Assembly: GCA_000182565.2 (NCBI GenBank)
Contig: KQ257464.1
Source of the DNA: Spizellomyces punctatus DAOM BR117
Taxonomy: Eukaryota
Length of the DNA stretch: 64,000 nucleotides
Direction: 5' to 3' (one strand)
The position numbers and the translations under genes are program-made. Positions 457 to 57,200 of the stretch are shown in pieces. How positions within the stretch are numbered: the first letter of the stretch is position 1; each line of letters opens with the position of its first letter. The notes under the pieces were generated by a model. That model saw nothing but the letters and a program-made list of their open reading frames with translations, searched no databases and was not told where the DNA came from.

Positions 457-975
457 TTTGTATCATAGGACCCACCAACTTCCAAAAGACCGTCCTCGGA
501 CGAGCAGAAAGTAGCTGCAGCACTTGATCAGTTGCGTAATTTTGAAAGTATATTAGTGGAAGAAAGGCGACGATTGGATCAAGAAATGTCAAAGACTGCC
601 AAATAATATTAATACGCCTTTTCATTCGCTACGAGGTGCCTCTGAACGTTTCAAAATCATGATAACTGTATCACATGTAGTCCATAGAATGTGCATGCGG
701 AACGACGCAGCTTTTGGTGTAGAACATAGCAGCTTTTTGGTTAGAGGACTATCTCGTATCTCGTCAAGTGAACTCTAATGATTCCATGCGGAGTCTGTTC
801 AGATACTGACATTCCAAGATGAAGCTACCATAGTGCGGAAGTGATTGAAATGGCACTAGGACCCATTATTATCCGGATTAATCCGGTTAGTCATATCGCA
901 TAATCAGAACCCCCTTCTATCGCTTAATGTTTTTTTTTTTTTTCAGCTGGACCCCATTTTGCCACAATCGAGGTC

Positions 976-1399: not shown

Positions 1400-1489
1400 C
1401 TTTTCCGAACCAGTTGTCGCCGGTTTATTCCCTGGTGTAGTAGCTAGTGCCAGTTTCTGTCACCTAATACACTATCCAAGATCTCCGAC
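1400..1489 (+). ncRNA. Ghost omegaRNA 1 (scaffold ~1400-1474, guide from 1475 TCCAAGATCTCCGAC)
   Basis: CTTTTCCGAACCAGTTGTCGCCGGTTTATTCCCTGGTGTAGTAGCTAGTGCC aligns with the scaffold 3' of the Fanzor ORF (50931-50994); ends in CACTA. Guide length is inferred. Confidence 0.75.
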
Positions 1490-3063: not shown

Positions 3064-3098
3064 TTCCCACCAACGCAAATAAATACATATATACATAA

Positions 3099-3737
3099 AT
3101 TGATGGCACTAGAACTCATTATTATCCGGATTAATCCGGTTAATCATATCGCATAATCAGAACCCCCTTCTATCGCTCAAAGCGGTGAGGCATGCTAATG
3201 TATTTTTTTCTTTTTCAAACTGTGGTGAGGCGCATGCTGAAGGTCTATAAAAGGGGGTCATTACTCCCTCTTCCCTCTTTCCTCTTTACCCATCCTCGAC
3301 TCTCGAAGCATCTGCACAACGCCCACGCAGCACTCTCAAGTCCATCATCATGAGAATACTGCTCTGGTGCCGAGGACCTCGCCCTCCCAGCAAAAACAAC
3401 ATAACCCCTTGCAAACGCTGCTACTACTATATTGCTACGATCGCAGGTATGCATTGTCTTTGTATTTTCCCATGCATATTCCGAGTCTAATTCTGATCTA
3501 CCTTAGTATCTGAACATCCTCCGACTAAAGAATTTCGGAATCAAGGGCTTAGTAGGATTTCTCTCATGTGGTGGGCTTAGTTACCCGGTTAGAACAACCG
3601 TAATGTATTGCATGTGTAATTGGGCCTAGTGGTAGTTGGTTGGTTGTAAGGAGGGAATTACTTGGCTTTTCCGAACCAGTTGTCGCTGGTTTATTCCCTG
3701 GTGTAGTAGCTAGTGCCAGTTTCTGTCACCTCTACAC
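3099..3737 (+). mobile_element. Fanzor 'ghost' element, copy 2 (left TIR eroded)
   Basis: Direct repeat of 833-1472. CATA at 3094-3097, but the first ~11 bp of the left end (GTGCGGAAGTG) are missing. Right end ...CTCTACAC followed by TA (3738-3739). Confidence 0.85.
3350..3580 (+). CDS. Putative spliced 56-aa micro-ORF in ghost copy 2 (exons 3350-3446, 3507-3580)
   Basis: Same ATG, splice sites and stop as in copy 1. Confidence 0.3.
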
Positions 3738-3754
3738 TAAAAGTGCCAGCCCTG
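3666..3754 (+). ncRNA. Ghost omegaRNA 2 (scaffold ~3666-3739, guide from 3740 AAAGTGCCAGCCCTG)
   Basis: Scaffold homologous to 50931-50994; stems GAACCAG/CTGGTTT and GTGTAG/CTACAC can pair fully. Confidence 0.75.
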
Positions 3755-5337: not shown

Positions 5338-8300
5338 ATGGGTGATTACAGTGGAATTGCGCAACCAAAGGCGAAAAACCAGCCTCAAGGACAGGTACGC
5401 GGAAAATCCCTTGCAGCGTCAGCACTCTGTGCGGTGTACTCATCTTGCAATTGTCCTCGCAGTTGGCCGCCCTTTTGCAAAGTCCTCTCAACTGGGACAT
5501 TGAACCAATGAACATGCCAAAGGAAATTGGCAGCAGGTCAAGTAGTGCACCTCCCGCCGGCATTCTAATGCCAGAAGGACCACGGGTATGTCTCCGAGAC
5601 GGCAGAGCGCTTTTGAGTTGATATCTCATGTCATTTCAATCAGGAGGTGGAAGAACCTGTCGTTGGCTCGGCCACCGATCCCCGTAGAGATCCTGAATAT
5701 GCCGCATACTATTATCATGCGTCAAGGCTAGACCCTCGTCTTCCTCCGCCTATCTATGCACCCGGCCAATCATGGCAAGTCTGGGCGCCGCCTGGGGTGA
5801 GCGGGAAAAACAAGGGACCTGAGGTGATGACACAGGCACCTGGGAAGAATTTGGAAAAGTTTAGAGGCTTCGGCATGGATGATGATTTCCTCAGTGATCA
5901 TCCGCTAGATGAAGTAAGTGGATATTATGAAATCCTACTTGGCGCGGTGATTAATTATAATGAATCCATTGCAGAGTTTGGAGCCAGAGGGCTTGTCGAC
6001 AAAGGATGGTAACGAGTATCGGTCACGCAGTAAAGCGCCTTTGCCTGATGCCAGAGCGGCCGCAGCAGATGCTCGCTTGAGCGATCCGCGATTATCCGAT
6101 CCTCGCTTGGCGGACCCAAGAATGGTCGACCCGCGAATGGCAGATCCTCGGTTGCTGGACCCGCGTTATGGTGATCCTCGGTTAGGTGATCCTCGAGTGA
6201 GCCCTGCATCTGCCTGGAGTAACGGAGATCTGCCGTCTCCTATGTCAATGCGAGGGGTTGACCTGGCAAGCTCTCCATCCAAGCGGAGAAACTTGGTGGA
6301 TTTAATTCAGGAAGATTTCCCACGGACTCCTTCTCCTGTTTTCGCAACTCGGCAAAGAATGGGCATGGATGAAAGTGGCGAAAAGCATGAGCTCAATGAT
6401 GTATTGAGAGATCAAATGCGCGCCGAACTTGAAGCGCAACTAGATCATTCCAACGACGATGAGCGATCTAGAATGGCCGCTGTCCTTAGTGCAGCAATGG
6501 ACACTCGTGATGAGTTGGCAACGGCCCCACCTCAGCGCTCCGCATCCACTCCGCCGTCGAATGTACACTACAATCAACTGCGAAATGCCATGCTACAAAA
6601 TTATGAAGATGAGATCCCACCAGAACTCCTACTTTCGATGAGAAATGTGAACCTAGGCGAAGTGAGAAATCTATTGACGAAATGTATCTGACTAGCTTCA
6701 CTTTTATTGACGCCGTAATTACTTCTAGTCATCATCCCAACAAAGAGTTGGCAACAAGCCACCAAAGATTGCGACTGGTTTTGATCGATTATACTCGGAT
6801 ATGTCTGCCCCTCGCAGCGCCGGCGCCTACCTTGGTGGATCGGCGCCATTGGCAAACTCGCTCATGGGAGGTTATCCAGGGACTTCAAGAGGTAGAGAAG
6901 CCGGTGGGTATGGTGATTTTCCTGTGGCAGCGCTCGCAAACTTACTCTTTTTGCGTTATATAGAGATGCTAGCTGCCTTAGAATTACAGCAACGCGCAGC
7001 CGCAGCTCGCAGCCCCATGTTTGAAGAAGAACTGCGGACGGGCGCCGCTCTCGGTTTAAACCATCCCAGTTTTGATCACAGACGATCCTATCCTGCTGGT
7101 ATTCCAGATGATTTGGCTTTGGCATATGCGTCTAGAAGGGCGGCTGCCAATCAACTCTACGAACCGAGTATGTTGCAAGCCTTAGCAAATCTGAACGGTG
7201 GGATGCCGGTAAATATGCCCATGAACATAGGGCGTGGCGGGGGATCTCTTTCTGAAAAAAAGCTGCGTTTGCTTGCCCAACAACAGTTGCTTCTTCGTGA
7301 ACAAATGCTTCGACGCGAATATTTTCAACAGTTGAATGGATTTCCTCCAGGCCGCAGACCTATTCCCTCTGATTTACCTTCACCCGGGGGACTAGCCGAT
7401 CCTGGACATGGGATGCGCAGCGCTCTCTTGGAGGAATTCCGTAATAATAAGAACAAGAAGTACGAATTGAGGGATATCGTTGGGAGTATCGTCGAGTTTA
7501 GCGGAGATCAGCACGGATCGCGGTTTATTCAACAGAAGCTCGAAACAGCCAACAGTGAGGAAAAGCAGTTGGTGTTTGACGAAATATTACCAAACGCTCT
7601 CCAGTTGATGACCGATGTATTCGGTAACTACGTTATCCAGAAGTTTTTTGAACATGGTACGTATCTTTGAAATTTTCATTATTGAAGTGAATGATTTTCT
7701 GATACCTTTCGCAGGCAACCAGATTCAAAAACAGATCCTAGCAAAGCAAATGGAAGGACATGTCCTCTCCTTGTCACTCCAGATGTACGGATGTCGTGTC
7801 GTTCAGAAGGCGCTCGAGCACGTGCTCACGGATCAGCAAGCAGTCTTGGTGCGGGAGCTCGATGGCAACGTTCTTAAATGTGTCAAAGATCAAAACGGCA
7901 ACCATGTTATTCAGAAGGCGATTGAGCGCGTTCCTGCAGAACATATCAAATTTATCATTGATGCCTTCCATGGGCAGGTGTACGCTCTTGCTACGCACCC
8001 ATACGGCTGCAGAGTGATACAAAGAATATTTGAGCACTGTGCTGACGAGGAGACAAAACCACTACTAGAAGAGCTTCACCGCTATACGATCAATCTCATT
8101 CAGGACCAGTACGGCAACTACGTCATCCAGCATGTTCTGGAGAGAGGAAAGCAGCAGGACAAGGGTTTGATCGTTAGCAAAGTCCGTGGGCAGGTTCTGC
8201 AACTTAGCAAACACAAGTTTGCAAGCAACGTTGTCGAAAAGTGTGTCGCCTTTGGTAGCAAAAAGGACCGCCAGCAATTGATTGACGAGGTTATTCAAAC

Positions 8301-8644
8301 GAGACCTGATGGGTAAGTAAATTGGATAGTACCAGTCGGATCCGATAGGCACTAACAGACAGAACAACTGCCACAGTACCTCTCCCCTAATCTTAATGAT
8401 GAAGGACCAGTTCGCCAATTACGTTGTACAGAAGATGTTGGACGTTGTTGATGGAGAACAACGTGAGATCTTGGTTCAAAGGATCAAGCCACACTTGCCT
8501 TCTTTGAAGAAGTACACTTATGGGAAACATTTGATAACAAGTAAGTTTAATGGGCAGCAGAGTGTAATTGAATCGTCGCTAGTTTCTTACACTGACCATT
8601 TTGCAGAAGTCGAAAAGTTGGTGATGCAACACAACATTCAGTAA
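5338..8644 (+). CDS. Pumilio/PUF RNA-binding protein, multi-exon
   Basis: Eight PUM repeats ([98 protein letters not shown]) and YTYGKHL. Start is approximate. Confidence 0.92.
6068..6200 (+). repeat. Nine 15-nt coding repeats encoding D(P/A)Rxx within Pumilio
   Basis: [44 protein letters not shown]. Confidence 0.85.
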
Positions 8645-35129: not shown

Positions 35130-35537
35130 GATAGTTCATGAGCATGGCAAACTCGTTAGGACTCTCCTCAGCAGCTGGAGCCGCTCTTAATGGTTGAGGA
35201 GCTCCGCAGATCTCCCATTTCCCTATGCAGACGCATAGAGGTCACAACTCGCGTTACTCTTGAAATATTCGATATGAGTAAATAGGTCACAAAGTCGTTT
35301 CTGTGCATACCTCCTTGTTGACCAAAGCTTGGCCAACACAGCTGCCTTCCTGCGGCTTATCTGCCTTTGATTGTTGGACAAAAGTATGTGCCTCTCCGTC
35401 CACCTCCTTTCGACAGGCCACTCTGGCTCTTTCCTCCTCCGCTTTGAGCTCCTCAAGCTCCCTTTCCGTCAATCATGCTCTTTCTCCAACTTGGCCAACT
35501 CCTTCTCCAAGTGTTCTCGCTCCTCCTACTAGTGCAT
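35130..35537 (-). pseudogene. Coiled-coil family copy 1, pseudogene
   Basis: ATG CAC TAG TAG GAG GAG aligns with ATG CTC AAG TTG GAG GAG of copy 3; premature stops. Confidence 0.55.
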
Positions 35538-35842
35538 CCAATCTCCCACAGTTACGGGCCGTTGGATTGGAAAGATTCTGGCTTTTCTCGCCCATGGTAA
35601 ACATTCCAACCTGGCGGCACAGTCACGTACCAAGTATCTGTAACAACGTTACACGTCCTTTTTGGTCAACAAAAAGTCTTCCTGTGTTTAACAACTCGTA
35701 TCAATGTATCCGCCAGACAAGTCGTTCAAATCACAAAGAATTATGCTTGCTAATCATGTTGATGGAATGGCTTGATGAATCCATGAGTGTTTAGAATGAC
35801 GTTGGAATGGCGTGATGAGTCTATAATTGTTTAGAGTTGTCC

Positions 35843-36423
35843 TCAAATGCTAGGTTCGACGTCAAGATCCAGTTTCTTGGGAGCACCATCAGCAGCAGGA
35901 GCCGCATCATCCAAATCATCCAAATCATCCAAAGACGTCAATGGTGTCCTCAAAGCCCCCATCTCCCGATGGAGATACAATGAGGTCGCAGCTTGGGCAA
36001 CTAACGGAGCTTGACCTTGACGCTGAGATTCGAGATGTTTGCGGTTCTAGATATTGGATGTAAGGTCGAACATTGCAAAACGAGCAGTATAATAGGTATC
36101 GGTTTTGTGCTTACCGCCTTCCTGAGTTCCCTAAGTTTGTCCTCCACCGCTATCTTCTTCTTACGCAACTCTGTCTTCTTGTTAATCAACTCTATCCTCT
36201 TCTTGAGCAACTTATTCCTTGTCTCGGTCAACTCGTCCATCTTGTTCCACATCGCCCAAAGCTCCGCCCCCTTTACACGCTGGCTTTTCAACTCTAGCAG
36301 CTCAATTCTGATCGGCAATATCTCCAGCTGTAGCAAGTCATCCTCTTTGTTTACCTCGGCTGCCTCCTTCTCCAAATTTTCCAGCTCTTGTTCCAAACTT
36401 TCCCGCTCCTCCATCTTGAGCAT
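35843..36423 (-). CDS. Coiled-coil family copy 2 (two exons)
   Basis: MLKMEERESLEQEL...VEDKL, GTAAGCAC intron donor, exon 2 ...LHREMGALRTP...DDAAPAADGA...*. Confidence 0.6.
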
Positions 36424-36768
36424 TACCGTTGAATTGGAGAGAAGCTGGCCTTGATATAGTTTTTCTCGCCCATGGGCAAACATTTAGGAATGGCGGCACA
36501 GTCACATACTAAATGTAATCTGTACCAAGAATAACCATCGTTTTGGTCAACAAAAAGGCAAAGGAGTGTTTATTCATAGGATGTAGCCGCAACTATAGTC
36601 TAGAAGAAAAAGATGTGTTTAGCAGTGAACTACTGCGTCCGTAGGCTTCAACGTGGCAAAATATATGTGCGGCACTGCAAAAGTACAGATGCACGGCCTT
36701 AAAGAAACAAAATGCAAAAATTAGATGCTGGTCAATAAGATACAAAGATGCTGAATGGCATGATGAAT

Positions 36769-37339
36769 CTATGGTTGTTTAGAAATGCTGGTTTCGAAAT
36801 CCTGGGAAGCACCATCAGCAGCAGGAGCCGCATCATCCAAAGACGGCATTGGCTTCCTTAAAGCTCCCATCTCTCGATGGAAACGCAAAGAGGTCAAAAC
36901 TCTGGTCACTACCCGAGCTTGAGCTCGACGACGTTTGCGGGTCTTAATAATTATTGGATATGAGTGTTTGCAAGAAGGCAGTATAATAGGTAGGTTATCA
37001 AGTCGGTTTTGTGCTTACCTCCTTGATAAGCTTGTCCTCTGCCGCCTTTTTCTTCTGTCTCAACTCTTTTTCCCTCTGATACAACTGTTCCCTCCTCTCA
37101 TACAACTCGCTCCTCCTGTCAATCAACTCGCTCGTCCTGTCAATCAACTCTATCAATCTCTCCCGTAACTCATCCTCCCTATCCTCCAACCACGAAGGTT
37201 CCTCCACTAGTAAGCGCCGTCTTTTCAGCTCCTGCCGCTCAATGTCGACCGTTCTTATCTCCTGCTGCAGCATTTCATCCTCTTTCTTTAACTTGGCTAG
37301 CTCCTTCTCCAACTTATCCCGCTCCTCCAACTTGAGCAT
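36769..37339 (-). CDS. Coiled-coil family copy 3 (promoter inverted)
   Basis: MLKLEERDKLEKEL...AEDKL, same intron, exon 2 FHREMGALRKP..DDAAPAADGA. Confidence 0.55.
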
Positions 37340-37733
37340 CCAATCTCTTACAGTTAATGGCCGTTGAATTGGAAAGACGCTTTGTTTTGCCTTTCGCCTT
37401 TTTGTTGACCAAAACGATGGAACAGATTTCATTTGGTACGTGACTGTGCCGTTAATGTTGAATGTTTGGCCATGGGCGAGAAAGGCTATATCAATGCCAT
37501 CAATCGGTGTTTATTCATAGGATGTAGCCGCAACGGTGTGGCCTGGAAGAAGGCTTCAAAGTGGCAAAATATGTCTGCGCCAATGCATATGTACAGATGC
37601 ACGGCTTTAAGAAACTAGTGCAAAAAAGTTATGCTGGTTATATCCAAAAACGCTAAACATCTGAATGATTTGTTGCATCTATTGTTGATTAGAAAGATCC
37701 TGAACACTAGTTTTGAGATCCTGATGAGCACCA

Positions 37734-38406
37734 TCACGCGGCAGGAGCCGCGTCACCCAATAACGATTGCGTCCTCAAAGTGCCCATCTCCCGATGAAGA
37801 CGCAAAGAGGCCGCAACTTGGGTAACTACCCGAGCATGACCTCGACGCCGGGATTTGAGACGCCTGCGGTTCTTAAATATTGGATGTGAGGTTGAAATTT
37901 TGCAAGACAGCAATATAATAGGTAAGTCATAGACTTGGTTCTGTGCTTACCTTCTGGTGGACCTCCGCAAGCTCGGCAATCACCGTGTCTTTCCTCTGTA
38001 TCAACTCAAAGAGGCTATTTTCCAGCTCCCTCGTCCTATTTCGCAGCTCGATCATCCTTGTGAGCATAGCGTCCGCATTCCCGCCTCGTTCCACTACCCT
38101 ATCCCATTCAACCTGAACCGCCAGCAACCCTTGATCTGTCTGTTGCTCCTCTTTGCGTATCTCAGCCAGCTCTTTTTCCAACTTTGCCACGTCTATCTTA
38201 TGTCGCAGCTCATCCTTCCTATTTTGTAGCTCCATCATCCTTGTAATCAAAGCGTTCCCATTCCCACCCCGCCCCACTACCCCATTCCACTCAACTCGAG
38301 TCGCCCTCAACTCCTCCGCCGTCCGCTCCTCCTCGCTCTGTAACTCGGCAAGCTGCTCGCCCAAGTCTTTGCGCTGTTGCAGTGCAAGCATTCTATCCTC
38401 CACCAT
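37734..38406 (-). CDS. Coiled-coil family copy 4 (internal duplication)
   Basis: Two VEW..VV.RGGN..A..TRM.EL.NR units; same intron; exon 2 LHREMGTLRT..GDAAPAA*. Confidence 0.55.
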
Positions 38407-38789
38407 GGAGGGTAGTTTGCAGAAAAGACGCGGGCCTTGAATGTAGAATTATTGTTAGCAATTGACCTTTTGTTTTTGATCTCCCGAACCTAGAATTCAC
38501 CTCTAGGCCTGGATATAGTAATTGATCCTTTCTCGATCACGCAAAGGTGGCACGGTCACGTACCAAATGCACATCTGTAAACATCATTTTTGGGTCAACA
38601 AAATAGACAGAGGATGACAATTGGTGTTTCTTTATAGTAATAGCCTCATTTGGTTGAGTTCTGCATGTCTATTTCGATGGAATAAGTCAACAGCCCCGTA
38701 ATCTATAACAGACGTTGCTCCAGATCTACCGTGACTAAAATGACGGTCTTTAGCAAAGCTGCTGCAAACTACCCTCCATAGAGGATAGA

Positions 38790-38978
38790 ATGCGTGCGCT
38801 GCAGCAGCGCAGAGATTTGAAAGAGGACTTGGCCAAGTTACATAGAGAGCAGGCGGTATTGGACTGGCAGATTGAGGACGGGAGCCATGGACGAGATCCA
38901 ACGAAACAAGCAATGAAAGTGTATTTACAAGATGCAAAAAGAAAGACAAACCTACCCGTCATGTCGTTATTCACGTGA
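38790..38978 (+). pseudogene. Coiled-coil family copy 5, 5' fragment head-to-head with copy 4
   Basis: MRALQQRRDLKEDLAKL resembles MLALQQRKDLGEQLAEL; shares the upstream CAAACTACCCTCCAT in inverted orientation. Confidence 0.45.
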
Positions 38979-39408
38979 TATCTCCCAAATCTCTCACGTG
39001 AGATCGACAAGGGCGACCATGGAACACTCCCGATGGCTACCGTGGCTAACTCACACATCTTGAACGATTGCCTACTGTACATATCGACTATTTACAGCTG
39101 CAACTCGTTAAGCCAACGATAGAGAATCACATTAACATACTATTGCTTTTTTATTCTGACCTTTTGTTAGGCCGTACTCTGCAGCCTTAACTGCCAAGTC
39201 ACTATGAATAAAAACAAACATGCTTCCCTTTTTTCCCTTTTGCGTTTGAACGGGTGGTACGTGACTGTACCATCACACTCTTACCAGGGTCGGAAAGAAC
39301 TGGACTATTTATAAAAATGTGGGGATGAAGGAGGATCCTCCAATGCTAAAGCTAGAGATATAGTATTTACTTTACACATGCGGAGGGGAGAGTAAGTTGG
39401 AAGTCAGC

Positions 39409-39644
39409 ATGGCGGCCAATAGGATTTCCGCGGCAGAGAAGCTCAAGCGCGGATTGGCCAAGGTGGCAGAGTTGGATAAAGAGAGGGCATTACCCAAACT
39501 GTGACTTCGTTGCGTCTCAATCGGGAGATGGGGGCTCTGAGGACGCCATTGTCGTCTTTGGGTGACGCGGCTCCTGCCGCGGATGGTGCTCACCAGAACC
39601 TGGACATCAAACCTAGCGTTGAAGACTTTTCTGAACAATCATAG
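39409..39644 (+). pseudogene. Coiled-coil family copy 6, internally deleted
   Basis: Short exon-1 remnant fused out of frame to exon 2 (CGGGAGATGGGGGCTCTGAGGACGCC...GACGCGGCTCCTGCC). Confidence 0.5.
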
Positions 39645-39816
39645 ATTCATCCAAGCCATTCAGACGCCAACATGATTAGCAACTCGGATCTTCTTTTGTT
39701 AACCAGGATAATATTGCATTTGTTTGTCAAAAGCCGTACTTCGATCCATATGCAGTGTGAGAGCAACGCACATGTTCAATGATCCGTCTCCCGAATAAAA
39801 CTAGAGACACAGATGG

Positions 39817-40060
39817 CCACCTCGGAAGCCAACGACCACCCATTACCCCATCTCATCATAACGTTCTGGCTGTTTCTAGGCCACATAATCATCCCGGACT
39901 CATGTGGCGACGTACTACGATCGCCAGCCCTGTATGACTAAACACAAATCCCCACCTCGCCAGCCAACGCCCCCTATTACCCACTCATCAAAACATCTTT
40001 GGTCTGGCCTGTGCCTAGGCGATACATTCATCCCAGACTCAAGTGGCAACGTACTATGAA
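39817..40060. repeat. Degenerate ~105-bp direct repeat (39817-39920 and 39952-40060)
   Basis: CCACCTCG..AGCCAACG...ATTACCC...CTAGGC...TCATCCC.GACTCA.GTGGC.ACGTACTA occurs twice. Confidence 0.7.
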
Positions 40061-40660
40061 TAAACATAATTGAATCCTGCATTCTTGTACTACACTATGA
40101 ATAAGCAAATTGACCAAAACCACGGGTATTCTTGTAACAGATTTCATTTGCTACGTGACTGTGCCATCCATTTGTTTGCATGATCGAGAAAAGAACACTT
40201 ACTATATCAAAGCCCAGCGTCTTTGCTCTAATCCTGCTTTTCGCTAAAAAGCTGTTGGACTAGTTATTTTTGGCTCGAGCATTCAAGGTATGTACAAAGA
40301 GTAAAAGATATGGTGGGAATAACTTAAAAGGAGGGCAATGGGGGGGTCCCCCGAAGAGAGGTAACTAGTTTTGACAAGATGGATATTCCACTCACTCTTG
40401 AGCAAAGATGCAACTGAAAGGGCCATCAAGGAGCGCAAAAAGCGCACGAAGCGCGCAACACGAACGAGGTTCATTATTTTTTGAATGTATTTCACTGAAG
40501 TTTTACTGATCAAAAATTCATCTATTAGAGACATCGCCTCGAGGTTTGGCCATGGTGTTTGGACTGTTACACTATGAACTTCAACTTATAGTCACTTTTG
40601 CAATTAAGGTCCGACGTGATCAACGTCTTTTCCGGGCTTCTTCCCGTGAAGATTGCCGGG

Positions 40661-41292
40661 ATGGTGGCCGAAGAGCGGCCCCCAACGGCGGGGGCCAAGA
40701 TGCGTGCCTTGGGGGAGAGGGATAAGTTGCACGAGGACCTGGCTGCGTTGGTGAGAGAGCAGGAAGAGATGGAGGTGGAGATCCGGGCGGTGGAGAAGGA
40801 GGAGGACGAAACCAAGCAGAAGCTCGTTGCGGTGATGGCTGAGATGGGGGTGTTTGCAAAGCCGGGGCGAGAGGGGGAGGAATGGAAGGTGCTGTATGAC
40901 CGGATGAGAGAGTTGTGGGGGGTGCAGAGCGAGGTGGAGGCCAGGAAGAAAGAGCTGCAACGGAGGAGAAAGGTGGTGGAGGACAAGCTTACCGAGGTCT
41001 ATCAGCAGGTAAGCACAGAACCAAGTTTATGACCTACCTATTATACTGCTTTCTTGCAAACGTTCACCTCATGTCAAAAATATTCAAGATTCGCAAACGT
41101 CTTAGATCTCAGATTCGAGCTCAGGCTCGGATAGCGACCCGAGCCGTGACCTCTCTGCGTCTCCATCGGGAGATGGGAGCTCTGAGGACCTGCCCTTCCC
41201 CTGTGAGGGATGAGGCGGCTCTTGCCGCTGAGGGTGTTCTCGCACCATGCAAGTCCCCTGGGGAGACAGCAGGGGACGGATCCAGCAGTTGA
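40661..41292 (+). CDS. Coiled-coil family copy 7 (two exons)
   Basis: MRALGERDKLHEDL...VEDKL, GTAAGCAC donor at ~41009, exon 2 LHREMGALRT..DEAALAAEG. Confidence 0.6.
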
Positions 41293-41617
41293 GCCCAACG
41301 ATCAACACAGCTATCGGGAGGAGATGGATCCAGCGGTTGAGCCCAACGGTCAACACAGCTATCGGGAGGAGATGGATCCAGCGGTTGAGTCCAACGATCA
41401 CCACAGCTCTTGTTCTTTTGGCACGGGGAGACAGTAGAGAACGGATCCAGCAGTTGAGCCCAGCGATCACCACAGCTCTTGTTCTTTTTGCACGGGGAGA
41501 CAGTAGAGAACGGATCCAGCAGTTGAGCCCAGCGATCACCACAGCTCTTGTTTCTTTTGGCACGGGGAGACAGTAGGGATTGGATCCAGCAGTTGAGCCC
41601 AATGATCAACACAGCTA
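41262..41617. repeat. Compound minisatellite with six cores
   Basis: GGATCCAGC(A/G)GTTGAG(C/T)CCA at 41278, 41326, 41374, 41443, 41512 and 41582 (periods 48, 48, 69, 69, 70). Confidence 0.9.
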
Positions 41618-41694
41618 CCGGCAGACGACGAACCACCACCACAGATTTCGTACGTTTGGCACGGCTCAGTTTCCGTACTCCTTTGATCCAACCC

Positions 41695-41810
41695 GAACCC
41701 CTTGTCGTGCTCGCGATGACCCATTGTCATGACTTAACTCGAATCCTTTGTCATGCGCGATGACCCAATTGTCGTGACCCAGCTCAATCCCCTTGTCGTG
41801 CATGATGACG
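41695..41810. repeat. ~45-bp degenerate tandem repeat, ~2.5 copies
   Basis: CC(C/T)TTGTC(G/A)TGC...GATGAC units. Confidence 0.6.
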
Positions 41811-48418: not shown

Positions 48419-48867
48419 GGTTGATGAGGTTCGTATCTCAAGTGAACCCCGATTACAAAAGGGATTCGTTATGATGGGGGAGAGCCTACCCAGTTCTACC
48501 TACTTTATAAAACCAAGTTACTTGCAACACTGAAAAATTACAAGGTTTTTTTCTTTGATTTTGTTTGTTTGGCGGTTCACAAATGATCTATAGCTCACTA
48601 AAAACTAGCGTACTATACCCTTTACGCGTTTCCTCCAATTTTGTTCTTCTTCTGCTGGATTGGTGCTAGAATTCGGCTTTTGCAAAAAAGATGGGGGATT
48701 TTTGTATCATCAAAGAATGCCGTCGTTGTTCAACGAAAACGTGACAAGCACACTCTGGTGTGCAGTCCACCACGCCAAAGTTATCTGCCAAGATTTCTGC
48801 ACACCCAATACTGCGCGTACAAGGGCGGATCTTTGTTGGAACGTCACCGCGCGTGTGTGTATGCATA

Positions 48868-48898
48868 GTGCGGAGCCGATGGGTATTGGCACTAGTAC
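48868..48898 (+). repeat. Left terminal inverted repeat (~31 bp), preceded by TAM CATA (48864-48867)
   Basis: Its reverse complement GTACTAGTGCCAATACCCATCGGCTCCGCAC matches the visible part of the right end. Confidence 0.85.
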
Positions 48899-48972
48899 AA
48901 AGATTCCAACCATTTTAATCATAATTTTACTCGATTTAGACTCATGAACTATGGTTTGATCCAAAAAAATCC

Positions 48973-48979
48973 TATATAA
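48973..48979 (+). promoter_or_regulatory. TATA-like box upstream of Fanzor
   Basis: TATATAA ~50 bp before atcatcATG. Confidence 0.45.
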
Positions 48980-49029
48980 GTTGTCGTGCCCATTTTCCCA
49001 GGCTTTCATCTTTTTCCACAGATATCATC

Positions 49030-50916
49030 ATGCCACCAAAAAAGAAGCAAAAGCTTGAAAACCCTACTTGCTTACATACCTGCAACAAGACTTCCTTTGC
49101 AAAAGCTTTCCTGCCAAACGACATCTACCGCCAACGGCTTTTAGATTACATCGCCATCATCCATCAACTTGCTGACCATGCTTCCCACGCTCTCAAATTC
49201 TACATCCTATCTGCACCATCCTTTCCCACGTTAGATCAAGATACAATCGAAGCGATTCTCTATCTTCTCAACAAAGGAGAGGCTTGGCAACCAAAAGCTG
49301 ATGCAAAGAAGGCGCTACGTGGATGCTTGGTGCCATATATTCGTCGGTACTGCCACATCGTCAGCTTCGTTCATCCAAATCTACAAAAAGAGCAGCAGTC
49401 AATCAATTACCTGACAGCGAGTATGATGACGAACCTGAAAGTCAACGTTCAAGAGCATTTCATGCAGATGCTCCTTCGGTATATCAATCTGCGGCTCGAT
49501 GTGAAGGGACAGAAGCAGCGACTGCCACTGAAAAGCGATGCACGGAAAGCTTTCTTTACTCGACTACGCTACTTAAAGTCAGTTTTTCTTTTTGATATCG
49601 TGCCCGAGTCGCTGGATGACTTGACCGCTGAAGAGAGTGAGCTTCTAGAAGAGATGTGGTCCTTCATTCCCCTTTCCGACCAGCCGCTCGCATATTCGGT
49701 TGCTGTTGACCCTCTCGCTTTCTTTCCTGCTTACTGCAAACTCTCTGTGCTGTATGAACGACATGGCTTCCGTCGGTTCAGCGCAATACCTCTTCGTCGG
49801 TCTCTGATTCAGTCCCATATTCGCATCGACACGGTCATCCTGTACCAGCATATCCTTTGCATCACGCGACGGGAAGCGGAAACTGTTGAAAAGGTCGACT
49901 TATGGTTGCGCATCTGTAATCTGCGGAACAAGGCTTTTAGATCTCGTCGTGGAATGTGTTTTGAAGGCTCGATCACGACAGACGGTACCTCGGTGTCAGT
50001 TTACTTGAAACATCCTGAAGCTGACAAGTATGGAAAGCGCAGCGGCGGAGGGAAAAAGTCAGCAAACACAATGGAGGCAGAGGTTAAAGCGCAATATGTG
50101 GAGAAAAACTTACCTGCTTGTCGAGTAGCAGAGAATGTTGTTGTTATCGACCCAAACAAGCGCGACATTCTCTACTGCCAAGACAGCATTGGTACAACAT
50201 TTCGCTACACCGCCAACCAGCGAGCCATGGAGACAGGTAGCCGTCGACAGCAAAAGGAACGACAGCAGATGAAGAAGGGGGAAATTGACCTCATAGAATC
50301 ACGTATCCCTAGCCACAAAACAATGAACCTCATGGATTTTACTCGCTACCTTCTCGTTCGCCGCGCGGATTCGGATCGTCGCAAGGAATTCTACTCACAT
50401 CCTGCCCACACGCGGTGGAAGTGGCACTCCTTCATCAATCGGCAGCGAAGCGAATCAGACCTCATAAGCGCCATGCGCAACAAATACGGTGAAAACTTTA
50501 CCGTTGTGATGGGTGATTGGAGCGACGCCGGTCGAACTGCCAGATTTCAGACCTCATCAAAGACAAAAGGTTGGCGCACCCTCTTTAAGCGGAACAGGAT
50601 CAACTGCTTCCTTCTCGACGAGTACAAGACCTCATCTGTCTGCCCTCACTGTTCATCCGATGACTTCCTTGAAAAAGGCTTCAAAACACGACCTCATTCA
50701 AGACCTTGGCGACGACGAGAAGGCAATGTTGAAAAAGTCCATGGATTGCTGGGTTGTACCAACCCTAACTGTTTGCAGCAAGACTGGACATCGGGAATGC
50801 GCTACTGGAACAGGGACACACTGAGCACCTGCAATATGCTGATGATCGTGCAATCAATTATGGATGGACACGGTAGACCAGAGGTGTTCAGCAGGAGTGT
50901 TCCAGCCGTAGCGTAG
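49030..50916 (+). CDS. Fz1: Fanzor1 RNA-guided DNA endonuclease (eukaryotic TnpB/Cas12 relative), 628 aa, intronless
   Basis: NLS-like PPKKKQK; TDG motif; RuvC I VVIDPNKRD (D374), RuvC II LLDEYKTSSVC (E531), zinc finger CPHC...CTNPNC, RuvC III WNRD (D596). Closely resembles SpuFz1 as I recall it. Confidence 0.96.
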   Translation: MPPKKKQKLENPTCLHTCNKTSFAKAFLPNDIYRQRLLDYIAIIHQLADHASHALKFYILSAPSFPTLDQDTIEAILYLLNKGEAWQPKADAKKALRGCLVPYIRRYCHIVSFVHPNLQKEQQSINYLTASMMTNLKVNVQEHFMQMLLRYINLRLDVKGQKQRLPLKSDARKAFFTRLRYLKSVFLFDIVPESLDDLTAEESELLEEMWSFIPLSDQPLAYSVAVDPLAFFPAYCKLSVLYERHGFRRFSAIPLRRSLIQSHIRIDTVILYQHILCITRREAETVEKVDLWLRICNLRNKAFRSRRGMCFEGSITTDGTSVSVYLKHPEADKYGKRSGGGKKSANTMEAEVKAQYVEKNLPACRVAENVVVIDPNKRDILYCQDSIGTTFRYTANQRAMETGSRRQQKERQQMKKGEIDLIESRIPSHKTMNLMDFTRYLLVRRADSDRRKEFYSHPAHTRWKWHSFINRQRSESDLISAMRNKYGENFTVVMGDWSDAGRTARFQTSSKTKGWRTLFKRNRINCFLLDEYKTSSVCPHCSSDDFLEKGFKTRPHSRPWRRREGNVEKVHGLLGCTNPNCLQQDWTSGMRYWNRDTLSTCNMLMIVQSIMDGHGRPEVFSRSVPAVA

Positions 50917-50930
50917 ATTGGTTAGATTAG

Positions 50931-50994
50931 CTTTTCCGAACCGGTTATCGCCGGTTCAATCCCTGGTGCGGGTGCTAGTGCAATACCCATCCGC
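50931..50994 (+). ncRNA. Fanzor omegaRNA scaffold (3' end and guide hidden by gap)
   Basis: Starts 14 nt after the stop; hairpin GAACCGG-TTATCG-CCGGTTC, then AATCCCTGGTGCGGGTGCTAGTGC-AATACCC; overlaps the right TIR. Confidence 0.88.
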
Positions 50995-51094
50995 NNNNNN
51001 NNNNNNNNNNNNNNNNNNNNNNNNNNNNNNNNNNNNNNNNNNNNNNNNNNNNNNNNNNNNNNNNNNNNNNNNNNNNNNNNNNNNNNNNNNNNNN
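50995..51094. other. Assembly gap (100 N)
   Basis: Run of N. Confidence 1.
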
Positions 51095-51268: not shown

Positions 51269-54200
51269 TTATCCTCCACCCCTCCTCCGCTCTTGCAAAC
51301 GTCCATTCATACCCCTGGACACTGGCGCCCACCGCGGTGAAAGCTGCCCAGATCGATTCGATCCCCGGTACGCAGTGGACTCATTGGAATATGTACTTGT
51401 GCTCTCCCCATAATACCGGCCTGAACTCGACACCCGCTGCCGGTCTTCGTACGTATCCCGTTCGGTGCGATCGTCTTCTCGTGTGTATGCGTCCCGAAGA
51501 CTTCGTCGTTCCCTCAACATTTCCCTCCCAGAGTCTCTAGCAGGCTCTCTGGCCACCTCCCACCCCCGCTCCTCCTCACCCTCCCGCACCCTCAAATGAT
51601 GCAAAGAAGCCACCGCTTTTGCTAACCTCTCATTCTCATTCTCCAAAGCCAATTTCGCATCTTTAAGCCGTATCACCTCCTCCTCCAATTCCCTCATACG
51701 TGGGTCATCCTGTTCAAGGTCCAACAAATTCTCCCAGCTGCCTACCGCGCTACGTGATAAAATCGGTTCCGTGTCACCACAGAGTTCTGCGAAAAAATGC
51801 TGTTGGCTTTCGGATAGGGCTTGTTTCCAGTTACGTGCTAGTATCCTATATCATTCGATCCAGTCAGTGATGGTTTGGCACAAACTCCTTTGTGTTTATA
51901 CACGTACCGCATTCGAATGAGACTCCTCACGACATCCACACATCTCTTCAACTTGATAACAGGTTTGTCGGACCCGACGCCAGAGGGTTCAAGCCCCACT
52001 CCTGCCAATGTCGCTCTGTGACTTTGTACAGTTAAAGAGAGATACAATTTCTGGTACTTGAGGTCTGCTCGCCAGGTCGACAGCCTGTCAACCAGTGCGC
52101 GGAGGTAGAGAACCTCGGATATGAGCTGACGGCACTGTTCCTTAATACTACAAAAAAAGCACCCCCACAGATTCGGTGAGTACGATATAAACACTCGTAA
52201 CAAACACAATACAAAAAGGGGAAGCTTACCGAGACATGTCCACCTTGGCCACTTTGTCATCATTCTCCCCGAGAACAGCCATCACATCATGCCCAGACCC
52301 AGATACATCCCCAATGGTGTTCTTCAACGTCTCTCGTAACACAACCATCATCTCCCGACTACTCTGCCTGATCTTTTTCAATTCCTTTTGCAACAAGCCC
52401 ACCTCATCTCGTAAGCCTTCATCTCCCGCATCGCTTGGCGACTGGGTTTTCGCATCAGAAGGATGCCGACGGTCGACTAGACGCCCTCGCTCCTTTTCGA
52501 GCCGCAACACTTGAATTTCAGCACTACGCCGTGCGTCTTCCAAATGCTGAACACGTCCATCAAGCCGTCTGATTCGGTCATCCTTCTCAAGTGAAACCTC
52601 TTCCAAATGTCGTATTTGAGTTTCACCTTGCAAGATTTTTTCTTCCAGTCGTTCCTTGACACGACGGAAATCATCCACAATGCGATCTCGCTCTCTTTCC
52701 AAAGCGTCCACAAGTCCTTCAAGTGCCTTGCGCTCAGCAGTGTGCATCTCTTCTTGTGCACTAGCTGCCTCTTGATGCTCGAAAAACTGATTGTTCAGCT
52801 TATCTTCCAGTAGTTTGACATCACTTCGAGCCATTTCCGCATCCTTTGTAGCGGCATCCAATAAATCCACAAGCTCATCAAATTCTTCTCGCATACGAGC
52901 CTGAGCTGCTCGAGCTTTATCTTGTGCATGCATAGCATCCCGCTGCGTTCGGGTGATCAACTCACGTAATGCGGTATTCGCTTCCAGTTCATGTGTCCAC
53001 ACTCTTCGAAGCTCGTCCAACTGTCGCTGGAGCACCTTTTCATTTCCGTTCTGCCGTTGCGTAGACGTTGATTCTTGCGTCATGGATTGGAGAGCATCCT
53101 TCAAGACTTGTGTTTGCATGGCATGGTCCTTGAGCAATGCGTGTGAGTTCTCCAATTGCCGCTGGTACTGCTCGGCTGCTGCTGCCTTTTCGTACAAATC
53201 GGCATACTCGCCAGGCGTAAGGTGATAATTCCCTTCATGGTCAGAGACAGGACGTCCTAATCCACCTTTTGCTGTCGTGTCAATTAATGCCCCCACGGAA
53301 CTGAGTTCCTTTCCAAGAATGACATGCTGATCCTCGACATCATGCAGCTTTGTAATCAAAATATTTAGATCGTCCAAAATCCGCTTTGGCAGGCGCTCAT
53401 AGCCGCCCACTGTCGTGCTGCGCAATAGATCCAAAAATCCATCTTTCCTAGCTACCAGTGCAGCAACCGCCGACTGATAGTCTCCGACAACACCAACCAC
53501 GTGAGAGACTAGGCTTCGCATGTCCGCGATAGAGCTTGTGGCCACGTTCCCGGATGGTGTACGCTTCGCAGGACGCCTAACACGGCCCCCACGAGCCGCT
53601 AACCCATCCTCTTCGTCGTCAGCCTCATATGTATCAGTAGTGTGCCCATCGCGGTTACTCCGCAAATAAAGAGCCTTTTCCTCTGCCAATCGGGCGTCAA
53701 AATCTGCCGCCATGTGTCGAATCTGAGCAGACTTGGCTTCCACCATCTCGCGCAGACCATCAACTTCTTTCTTGAGCTCGTCCCGTGCTATTGCGGCGTC
53801 TTCCAATTGCAATACCCTACTTTGAAGGGCAGTGATTTCCTCTTCCAGTTTGACCACGAGTGCCCGCTTGTCGTCTAGCTCTTCCAGTACCAAATTGTTC
53901 CTTCGTAATTCAATCTCGTTTTCTCGTAGTACTTCATCCGCTTCTCCAAGAGCTCTCTCCAAGCTCTGGACGTCAGCTTCTAAGGTACTCGTTCTGACAT
54001 GTAGCTCATCAATCATCCGCGTTTTTTCCCGTACTTCACTTCTCATTAGGTCTCTCTCCTCAGTCAGCATCGTTACACGATGTCGCAATTGGTCGACGGT
54101 TGCTGCTGTCACGGGCGGCTGAGATAAATCTTTGGAGTGCAGTGTGTCATGGCTCACAGGCGACGTTGCACTGGTATCTGACATCTGGCTCTCGGACACT

Positions 54201-57200
54201 CTTTGCAAATCACGTTTGAGCACCTCCAAGGCGCGTTCCTTGCCCTCCAACTTGAGTTTCACATCGGCCAGCTCCATGGCCAAGGCACTCGACCGGTCCT
54301 GCTCTTCCCGCAGCTTCTCCAGCGCATCGGGGAGGCTCGAGTCTAGGCTGTGGGCCTGAGTAGCCTCATATAGCTCTTTGCTGACGCGCTGAACTTCTTG
54401 TCGCGCATTCTCCAACTCGGTAACGAGTCGAGCAGCCTCATCCCGGCTTTGTTGAACCAGCGCATTATGGCTCTTCTCCATGACCTCCTTCTCGCGTTCA
54501 AGTGCATCAACAGTCGCCCGTAATTGTCGTGACTCTTCTTCGCGTGAGGCAGACAACTCGATGGCCTCATCGAGCTGTCCTCGCAGCTCTGTTTCCACCC
54601 CCTCCAATTTCTTAACCCGCTGCTCCAGCTTGGTCTTTGCTTGCGAGACCGCATCATGTTCGGCGCGTATCTGGTGCAGCCGTTGCTCTACTTCCCCAGC
54701 TGATGCGAGAGACAAGCTTTGCATCTCGACCATGTCTCGCATCTTCCGAGCCAAATCGTTGATGCGCACCAAGAGACGCGTTCGGCTTGCAGTCAGCTCG
54801 TCTAGAGAGCCTTCTGGCGTCGACTCCCAATCAACTGGTGATTGCTCACCTCCACCCACAGCCCCAACGACCCCCTTCATCACATTAACGATATCTTGTA
54901 GCTTCAGTTTCTCCTCTTCATCCCGCTCAGCGAAGCTCTTGATCATAGCGGATTTCTCCTCTTCATGCGCATTCTTCTGTTCACCCATTCTAGTTCGTAT
55001 TTCCTCAAAACTAGTCTGCAAATCCTCCAAGGCCTTCTGAAGTTCCTGTACAAGGGCCCTCTCTTCCTCTAGCAGGCGACCATTTTGCTCCGTACTCTTC
55101 GTCAGAAGCTCGATTTCAGCTTCCAATACAGTATTACGGTGCGCAAATTCATCTTTGGTCGTCTGCAAGTCAATTAGCACTTTGCCTCGTTCATCGAGCC
55201 TGCTTTCGTAGTCCTCTTCTAGCATTGAGATTGTTTCTTCCATTTCGACCAGCTGCCCTTGAAGGGTCTGTACGATGGCAGTACTTCGATCGCGCTCTTC
55301 CATAAGTGAATGCCGCTCCTCTTCCAGAGCAGTCACTTGCGCCTGCAGTTCCTGTGTTCGTGCTTCCAGCACATCCCGCTCAGATGCCAACGTTTCGCGC
55401 TCTTGGGTGATTCTCAAAACTTGGGCGCCTACATCCTCTAATGATGACTGCGCGACAGCATGCCGCTGCTCAGCTTCTTTTTGTGCGGCGGATAATACCC
55501 CACGTTCCTGCTCCATTTGCGCTTCCAGCTCAGGTATCATTTGTTCAAGGGCAGCAACCTTCTCAAGCGCATCTTCCCGTTCCTTCCGGATAATCTCTGA
55601 GACAGTTTCAAGTTCTTGCCGCGCGGCAACTTGCTCGTTTGATGCGGTTTCCAGATCTGTCAACTTTTGTGATATCTCAGCAACAGAAAGCTGCTCTCGC
55701 TCCAATTCCTCTTGTAGATAGGCGATATGCGTTTCCCTTGCATTAAGGGATTGTAGCAAGCGCTCATTCTCTTCGCTTATTTCTCCTACTCTGGCATTGA
55801 CCTCTTCGATTCTTTGTTTCCACACCGAACGCTCTTTCTCTTCCTCATCCTTCCTCTGCCGGAAAGTATCCACGGTCTCCTTCAAAGAATCTAATTCTCT
55901 AATCAAAGCAGCCCGTTCCTCTTCACGAATATCAACTTCCTCGCGCAATGCTCCCTTTTCCTCTTCCAGTGTCATCACACGGGCTTCTAACTCTGTCATT
56001 TTGACAACGCCCTCCTCCATGGCGGTATGAACTCGTTTTCTTTCTACTTCCACAAGCTCAATCTGAGCCTGCAGCTCGTCACATTCTGCTGCCATCCGCT
56101 CGCGCTCCTGCAGCGCTGCGTCGCGTTCTTGGTGCAGACGCTCGATTTCTTCTGTCCTTCCATCAAACTTCTCCATTATTCTAGCTATTCGATCGTGCAG
56201 GCCATCCCGTTCGGCGACAAGTTCGTTGACTTCCGCTAGCCTGCGGTCTCTCTCTTCAGTAACTATATCGAGCTCCTTTTTCAGTTCCTTCGCCTTGTCC
56301 CCGCCTTCAGATACTAAATGATTATACCGCTCGTTCGCCTCAGCAAGTTGGGCTCGCAACACCCTATCGGCTTCTGCCATAGCCATCTGGAGCATCTCTT
56401 TTTCCTCGTTCAACATATCTAACGCCGCTTCAGCATCCGCTAGACCGGCACTCAGCTCCGTAACCTGTCGTGCAGCATTGTCTTTCTCCGTGGCGAACTC
56501 ACGAAGTTTGAGAACCAAGGCTTCTTTCTGAGCTGTTAGCGTTGCAATCTCTCTTTCGCGCGCAATTTTTTCTGGTTGCATGCCTTCAAGTAACTGTTCG
56601 AGTTCAGCTCTTGCAGCTACGACGGAAGCTAGTTGTTCCTGCGCTTCCATCAACTCTTTGATGGATTGGTCCCGCTGATCAAGTACCCCTTCAATTTCAA
56701 GGCTTCTTTCGCGGGTAATGGACGCAATAAGTTCCTCTCGTGCCTGAAGCTCCGCCTCCAACAAGCGCACACGGTCCTCCGTTGATTCTCTTTTCTGAAT
56801 CTCCTCCGCAAGTTGTTGTTGCAATGAATGGACTTCAACAGTCAACTCTTCCGCAGAAGCAGCCAATTGCTCTTCTTTCGCCGCATGCTCCTGAAGCTTC
56901 TGGTTCAAGGATTTGATGTCGTTGTCTTTTGCGGTAGATTCACTGGCTGAGCGGATTCGAAGATCTTCCAACTGTGCAGAGACTTCCTGGAGCTGTCTGG
57001 CCTTTTCGGCCAATTCGGCAGTAGCGTCATTCCGAACCACATCGAGCTGCGATTGTAAATCAGAGATCAAAGCTTGCCGCTCGTTCAACTCATCCATCAT
57101 CATCGACTGCGATCGGTGCAACTCCTCCTTATGGGTCGCGTCCACGCTAGATAATTCTTCAACCTTCCGTTCCAAGGCATCCTTTTCCAACACCGCGTCG

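Follow-up and report, generated by a model that had tools for sequence, protein, structure and literature searches.

The window, a 64 000 nt stretch of Spizellomyces punctatus DNA, contains at positions 3666–3739 (+) a 74 nt segment with two stems that ends in a terminal inverted repeat (TIR). The question it raises is whether base changes in these stems record selection on an RNA, on the TIR or on both, and which nuclease the RNA serves. It is the omegaRNA scaffold that forms the right end of a ghost Spu-1 element, a non-autonomous transposon here called ghost 2. Spu-1 and ghost Spu-1 elements, with 134 ghost loci, were reported previously (Saito et al. 2023, PMC10432273); as the ghost-2 locus is catalogued and scaffold function already published, the locus itself matters little. 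The original prediction was that compensatory changes mark ghost scaffolds as selected for RNA structure, not as TIRs, and as a distinct subtype for a different Fanzor paralog. The explanation we hold to be quite probable is that the ghost right end is read twice, as a TIR in DNA and as an omegaRNA scaffold in RNA, the compensatory changes being neutral alternatives in one fold and not a specificity switch.

Two gene-less elements (approximately 829–1474, ghost 1, and 3094–3739, ghost 2) and one Fanzor1 element (48864–50994) are present in the window. Ghost Spu-1 elements described in the text of PMC10432273 have 30 nt inverted repeats at their ends; like them, ghost 2 is gene-less, with CA before the left repeat and a right-end scaffold of 74–75 nt. 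Both window ghosts have CA before the left repeat, reading CATA (829–832 and 3094–3097), and share an interior of about 550 nt (direct repeats D1, D2 and D15). Ghost 1 retains both TIRs; its left end (829–859, +) is CA plus a 29 nt TIR with an atypical GTGCGG, and its 75 nt scaffold lies at 1400–1474 (+). The ghost-2 right TIR is intact, while comparison with the left-end consensus showed that its left end (3094–3112, +) is CATA plus a partly deleted TIR. None of the 71 Fanzor tblastn matches listed genome-wide falls within either ghost, and the list of open reading frames shows no Fanzor there. The family is multi-copy, with at least 110 main-class scaffolds, and 90 full elements were aligned.

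The Fanzor1 element begins with CA plus a 30 nt TIR (48864–48895, +), and its 628 aa ORF (49030–50916, +), which is free of internal stops and carries RuvC motifs IDPN, LDEY and NRDT, encodes a close relative of SpuFz1 (PDB 8GKH, 1204.6 bits). Within the SPu-1, SPu-2 and SPu-3 Fanzor1 families (Bao and Jurka 2013, PMC3627910), it is an SPu-1 member. Its omegaRNA scaffold (50931–50994, +) ends at a 100-N assembly gap (50995–51094) that interrupts the right end of the element; a complete close relative is L032. A Pfam scan of the window Fanzor protein returned no families at E 0.1, and an Rfam scan of the window returned no matches at the gathering score.

The ghost-2 scaffold is near-identical to published scaffolds and has the SpuFz1 omegaRNA layout of two stems, a 6 nt linker and a C6–G20 contact. 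Stem 1 (3673–3692, +) has the arms GAACCAG and CTGGTTT (3673–3679 and 3686–3692) where the Fanzor locus has GAACCGG and CCGGTTC, as had been claimed, with an A-U pair at 3678/3687 and a loop CG at 3684–3685. The 5′ arm of stem 2 (3699–3706, +) lies outside the TIR, and the 30 nt right TIR (3710–3739, +) forms the 3′ part. The terminal arms GTGTAG (3701–3706) and CTACAC (3732–3737) were also correctly read, with changed bases at 3704–3705 and 3733–3734. The Fanzor 3′ half, originally supplied across the gap by inference, is safe: the set described below contains 43 SPu-1-type right ends, two without a callable end, and among the matches listed all of the remaining 41 are CCGCACTA. Ghost 1 has one mismatch per stem, A.C in stem 1 and G.A in stem 2. 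The ghost-2 scaffold folds at −21.9 kcal/mol (z −3.36; 1/200 shuffles as good), and the fold of ghost 1 is not above chance (z −1.50). Behind the scaffold, 3740–3754 (+) is the predicted 14–15 nt guide taken from flanking DNA, by extension from the text of PMC10432273.

For comparison, at least 187 stem-1-bearing scaffolds were collected by BLAST from genome G000, in which the window is G000:C15. This is a sample and not a full census, drawn from the first 100 of 179, 111, 141 and 122 pattern matches. The 187 comprise 110 main-class ghosts, 43 of SPu-1 type, 29 of two further end types, two SPu-2 and three broken scaffolds. As 30 of the loci were picked by likeness to ghost 2, key counts were repeated on a set picked by left end alone. 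The ghost family is mosaic, and a tree of 102 ghost interiors cannot count origins of the A-U pair. A metagenome scan for outgroup Fanzor loci gave 169 pattern matches, none confirmed, so there is no cross-species alignment and base changes carry no direction.

The A-U pair had been taken as the mark of a ghost subtype. It is real in ghost 2 and is a minority allele among ghosts: the 110 listed main-class ghosts have G-C in 72, A-U in 29, G-U in four, A.C in four and another state in one, and A-U is found in 13/74 of the matches listed by left end alone. At the ghost-1 stem-1 position, 883/1147 reads of run X21 carry G. Ghosts with the A-U pair are dispersed across the tree of interiors, and in only 10/33 cases is the pair also present in the closest neighbour upstream. 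The A-U stem 1 is joined to three different right-end classes, which argues against its marking a subtype for one paralog. The stem-2 mismatch of ghost 1 is likewise a shared allele (9/90 of the listed ghosts) and not private decay. The letters of the proposed double compensatory terminal change are also real, and it occurs in 88/110 of the main-class ghosts listed; it is probably a single, family-wide event. The change falls on C40–G70 and G41–C69 of the solved structure numbering, in a segment where SpuFz1 makes no contact: the C40–G70 region is without protein contact in the SpuFz1 RNP and can be trimmed, at the cost of some activity with later SpuFz1 variants according to the text of PMC13434818.

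That the fold is selected is supported by covariation, by a deficit of shared variants and by TIR differences that pair. Across 100 full-length scaffolds, all distinct, pairing holds in 97.4% of cells against 28–46% in slid controls, and both sides have changed in 7/16 pairs, one of the seven resting on a single poorly aligned row. Covariation exceeded 500/500 shuffles, a significance that is overstated because the copies are related and mosaic and relatedness alone may beat shuffles. Among the 187 scaffolds listed, one stem-1 pair is C-G in 159, U-G in 16 and U-A in 10, a second is A-U in 174 and G-C in eight, and a third is G-C in 63, G-U in 115 and A-U in seven, and the swaps show wobble intermediates. 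In the cryo-EM structure of the SpuFz1 RNP a loop G pairs with C6, while the loop CpG is unpaired in the plain hairpin; the C6 pair is kept in 183/187 of the listed scaffolds. RNAalifold does not recover the outermost three pairs of stem 2, and its predicted U-G pair in the loop is at odds with the cryo-EM text.

In the 90 full ghosts among the matches listed, private changes per site are 0.53 in the core and 0.45 in the interior, and shared changes are 0.22 and 0.61, respectively (Fisher p 0.002); in 72 of the matches listed by left end the core deficit has p 4e-5. An equal private rate with a low shared rate indicates free decay after insertion, with the core kept in the lineages that multiplied. 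Shared changes preserve pairing more often than private ones (5/6 vs 6/17, p 0.07), which is suggestive. Constraint is also seen in the left subterminal region, where columns 46–90 have 12 shared and 32 private changes; a scarcity of shared variants is therefore not peculiar to RNA. A palindrome with CCGG arms lies just inside the left end of both window ghosts (865–894 and 3118–3147); its region is conserved in multiplying lineages and is possibly a subterminal binding site.

CpG sites mutate fast where transposons are methylated. The best surviving alternative, though improbable, is that the paired changes arose without RNA selection, through deamination of CpGs in both arms, copying templated by the hairpin and gene conversion, and were multiplied by shared descent. 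The two-sided changes originally singled out all lie at CpG sites, 5mC in Spizellomyces is confined to transposons in the available text of PMC12695648, and the family is mosaic. Interior CpGs decay heavily, down to 15/90 kept among the matches listed, and A.C (five) and G-U (six) intermediates are equally rare among those listed, as neutral decay predicts. However, the loop CpG is intact in 90/90 of the listed ghosts, where the three other scaffold CpGs survive in 65–82 of 89–90. This alternative also leaves unexplained the non-CpG swap from A-U to G-C in eight listed copies, the 3- to 4-fold depletion of shared changes and a flank motif, described below, that tracks the right-end type.

The ends of IS200/IS605 and Helitron elements are recognised by their transposases as single-stranded DNA hairpins. 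By analogy, the ghost hairpins might be selected as ssDNA structures that a transposase recognises, which we regard as somewhat less probable again. Covariation is blind to the difference between RNA and ssDNA, the real right end folds better than a symmetric one as DNA too (−5.0 vs −0.9 kcal/mol), the SPu-3 left boundary is a terminal hairpin without stem 1, and the text of PMC10432273 raises ssDNA transposons as a possibility, having found no transposase. Against this, G-U wobbles are frequent (115/187 of the listed scaffolds at one pair) and suit RNA better, the conserved unpaired bases are RNP contacts, TA duplications with TIRs indicate cut-and-paste, and the RNA is known to exist and to function.

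Selection on the RNA fold does not replace selection on the TIR. The original prediction held that the right-end change breaks symmetry with the left-end GTGCGG. The G-to-A part is indeed specific to the right end, and the C-to-T part is common to both TIRs. Among the 101 ghost left ends listed, 74 have GTGTGG, four GTGTAG and one GTGCGG; the ghost-1 left end is thus an outlier, and 4/101 argues against homogenisation of the TIRs to GTGTAG. The combination of TG on the left with TA on the right and TA in the 5′ arm is found in 76/90 of the listed ghosts. At four positions the ghost left TIR is unlike the right one, and each of these differences contributes a base pair to the hairpin of the right end, giving −12.6 kcal/mol vs −3.7 for a symmetric end; 52/5000 random four-base changes do as well.

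The claim that ghost ends are not selected as TIRs did not survive, as the TIR is conserved too. The seven inverted repeat differences from Fanzor loci given in the text of PMC10432273 were reproduced here. The right TIR of ghosts departs from that of Fanzor loci at nine positions, and five of these changes are mirrored in the left TIR. The distal part of the TIR, dispensable for nuclease cleavage, has the fewest shared variants (one in 25 sites among the matches listed, and the same in the left-end set). Median fold energy is weaker for ghost scaffolds (−21.9) than for Fanzor loci (−29.0). The right end is constrained both as an RNA fold and as a TIR, RNA or TIR being a false choice; structural selection on the scaffold is mostly upheld, in a weaker form and alongside the TIR constraint.

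Which nuclease the ordinary ghosts use is answered largely by published scaffolds. Of the ghost scaffolds tested in PMC10432273, Ghost1 and Ghost2 have both the A-U pair and the terminal change, and Ghost3 and Ghost4 have G-C. According to the text, each of the four was on a par with the improved canonical scaffold when used with SpuFz1 in human cells. SpuFz1 thus uses A-U and G-C ghosts alike. Ghost1 and Ghost2 each differ from 3666–3739 at one distal-stem base, and from scaffolds this close SpuFz1 cleavage programmed by the ghost-2 scaffold would be expected. In the gst1–gst126 survey (PMC13434818, Nat Commun 2026), gst91 is 3666–3739 plus a leading base and gst99 and gst112 are the ghost-1 scaffold plus a leading base; in the available text, relatives are active with SpuFz1-v3 and gst91 is absent from the named tested entries. 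The source row for gst2 nearly repeats the canonical row and was left out.

The flanks agree. The SpuFz1 TAM is CATA, which precedes 80/92 of the listed main-class ghosts and 14/16 Fanzor left ends. Flank position −3 is A in 90/92 and T in none of the main-class ghosts listed, and A-U ghosts keep this A like the others; the full CATA flank is found in 15/22 A-U and 58/63 G-C ghosts among the matches listed.

With near-identical scaffolds working with SpuFz1 and the ghosts sitting at CATA, the proposal that the ghost-2 scaffold is a separate subtype for another Fanzor paralog finds no support here and is the least likely of the alternatives, at very long odds. SPu-2, a divergent paralog (58–61% identical, two copies), does have the A-U pair, its stem 1 (TTTACG loop) and leader are close to those of six ghosts, and A-U is found in none of the 41 Fanzor-linked SPu-1-type ends listed. 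However, SPu-2 stem 2 is unlike ghost stem 2, the SPu-2 end motif occurs only three times, all at the two SPu-2 copies, and the SPu-2-like gst28, which has the A-U pair, is the best tested SpuFz1-v3 scaffold in the text of PMC13434818 (55.8–61.1% vs 37.0–42.6% for the canonical scaffold). The A-U allele may be old and may stem from the SPu-2 lineage. SPu-2 as a living partner was rejected, as both copies contain stops. Both broken copies lie at L196 (G000:C9:616500–625500); there the left flank differs from CATA, stem 1 of the right end is followed by a stem 2 of very few pairs, and the linker falls within the inverted repeat.

An SpuFz1 omegaRNA would be a small RNA of 88–90 nt. The ghost family is transcribed on the sense strand, including the scaffold, in run X21 (60 nt reads mapped at family level, not a small-RNA library), and depth in the unique flank behind 3739 falls below 4 in the next bin. 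Runs X22, X1 and X2 gave zero, one and one contigs and no evidence of expression. Within 971–1241, a TATA-like box is followed by an intron (1174–1241, +; 64 nt skipped, GT..AG) supported by 391 spliced X21 reads mapped at family level; one strand is covered thousands of times at this level. A single soil metatranscriptome contig from run X2, which may be DNA, matches 3591–3705 and joins the A-U stem 1 to another right-end type.

Both stems persisted in the lineages that multiplied, an inserted copy decays at the background rate, and stem 1 moves between end types as a short module. Under the dual reading of the right end, the ghost transcript would be trimmed to the scaffold plus approximately 15 nt of flank and loaded on SpuFz1 supplied in trans by Spu-1 elements, such as that encoding 49030–50916. 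After excision, the loaded SpuFz1 would cut the empty CATA-plus-guide site, and repair would restore the ghost. The fold would then be selected at the level of the transposon, and the TIR by a transposase. The right-flank guide, left-flank TAM and empty-site cutting follow the model of TnpB-mediated retention of IS200/IS605 elements set out in the texts of PMC10432273 and PMC10690162. Unlike those elements, ghosts have TIRs and TA duplications, their nuclease would act in trans, and their retention is proposed by analogy. The selection analysis lends modest evolutionary support to ghost guides working in the fungus, a point that the text of PMC10432273 leaves open. Covariation or selection analysis, left/right TIR asymmetry and right-end classes are absent from that text and are added here; PMC11423790 makes no mention of ghosts, covariation or paralogs.

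A paralog-specific guide may exist elsewhere in the family. No stem 1 was found within 1 kb in 23 of the 100 left ends listed, and for approximately 17 of these the partner is a right end of another kind. Pattern search recovered 26 such ends (a BLAST-type genome search recovered one), one of which belongs to SPu-3, a single-copy Fanzor1 that is 23% identical to the window protein and, like SPu-2, is present in G000. The other 25 (L252–L277 with the SPu-3 end, e.g. L255, G000:C2:750238–753262) match the last 170–190 bases of SPu-3 (270 in one), mostly at 94–99%, and 24/25 of these elements also match ghost 1 to about base 545 at 74–89%. Left TIRs were callable in 20 and were without exception those of ordinary ghosts. 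In 19 of these 20, a T precedes the TA (CTTA in seven, TTTA in six, ATTA in five and two others, making the flank (C/T/A)TTA in 18/20), against 0/92 in the main-class ghosts listed (Fisher p 2e-20). As the left end is unchanged, the flank motif may be set by the guide-RNA end.

Judged by sequence, the SPu-3-end class is likely a paralog-specific omegaRNA subtype. In its simplest reading, it would be a second class of guides for SPu-3 with a TTA-type TAM. We give an even chance to the wider reading that one ghost cassette (left TIR, promoter-like box and intron) is an interchangeable chassis expressing guides for two orthogonal Fanzors in the same genome: the class in the window has the SpuFz1 scaffold and lies at CATA, and the second class has the last 160–190 or so bases of SPu-3 and lies at (C/T/A)TTA. 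Against the two-Fanzor arrangement, CATA is also what flanks the one SPu-3 gene copy at its left boundary, an atypical one formed by the inverted hairpin end of another class, and the flank motif could instead come from a transposase that chooses targets by right-end sequence. In the text of PMC13434818, gst8 and gst16 gave 6–9% editing with SpuFz1-v3 vs 37–43% for the canonical scaffold. Both are SPu-3-type scaffolds, a link made here and absent from that text, and as tested 75 nt fragments they may be too short.

If the cassette does serve both Fanzors, the flanks would be evidence, from the genome itself, that the sites at which gene-less elements persist are decided by a Fanzor in trans, and a biological role for Fanzor in helping transposons in trans would become testable provided that the flank motif follows the guide-RNA end. 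A TTA-type TAM would be predicted for SPu-3, adding a Fanzor1 that has a scaffold of its own and differs from SpuFz1 in its TAM, and the poor performance of some catalogued ghost scaffolds with SpuFz1 would be explained. A full-text search of openly available papers for SPu-3 with Fanzor returned none, and searches of this literature for the SPu-3-end class found no account of it. The available text of PMC3627910 predates omegaRNAs, ties no gene-less elements to SPu-2 or SPu-3 and lists SPu-3 as single-exon with X residues. The SPu-3 gene (L249:534–2430, G000:C7:73033 onward) contains a probable 63 nt GT..AG intron at approximately L249:2211–2273, judging from its letters; removal of this putative intron would open the C-terminus, so the gene may be intact.

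Some further end types and rearrangements were seen. Stem 1 recurs in two additional right-end types (L200, L210 and L215; L219–L248), one of them joined to SPu-1-like ORFs in three loci, and the match between the tail of ghost 1 and the tail of these types suggests end swapping. Many entries in the survey of PMC13434818, among them gst3, gst4, gst7, gst73 and gst98, match the left end of ghosts in reverse complement (window 831–907 compared), which may explain their low activity. L087 and L128 are rearranged ghosts, with an inverted second scaffold and an insertion, respectively, inside stem 2, and L063 is a minimal element in which a left-end fragment is fused to a right TIR. The Spu-1 loci L043, L046 and L051 have the same unrelated insert upstream of the scaffold.

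Elsewhere in the window, a 2227-codon open frame with strong strand skew (52226–58909, −) adjoins the Fanzor element. A cluster of direct and inverted repeats with a period of about 900 bp and 48/69 nt tandem units (35200–41700) is unrelated to the ghosts. Between the ghosts and this cluster lies a spliced gene (5951–8316, +), the translation of which resembles, by eye, what we take to be a Pumilio-repeat protein.
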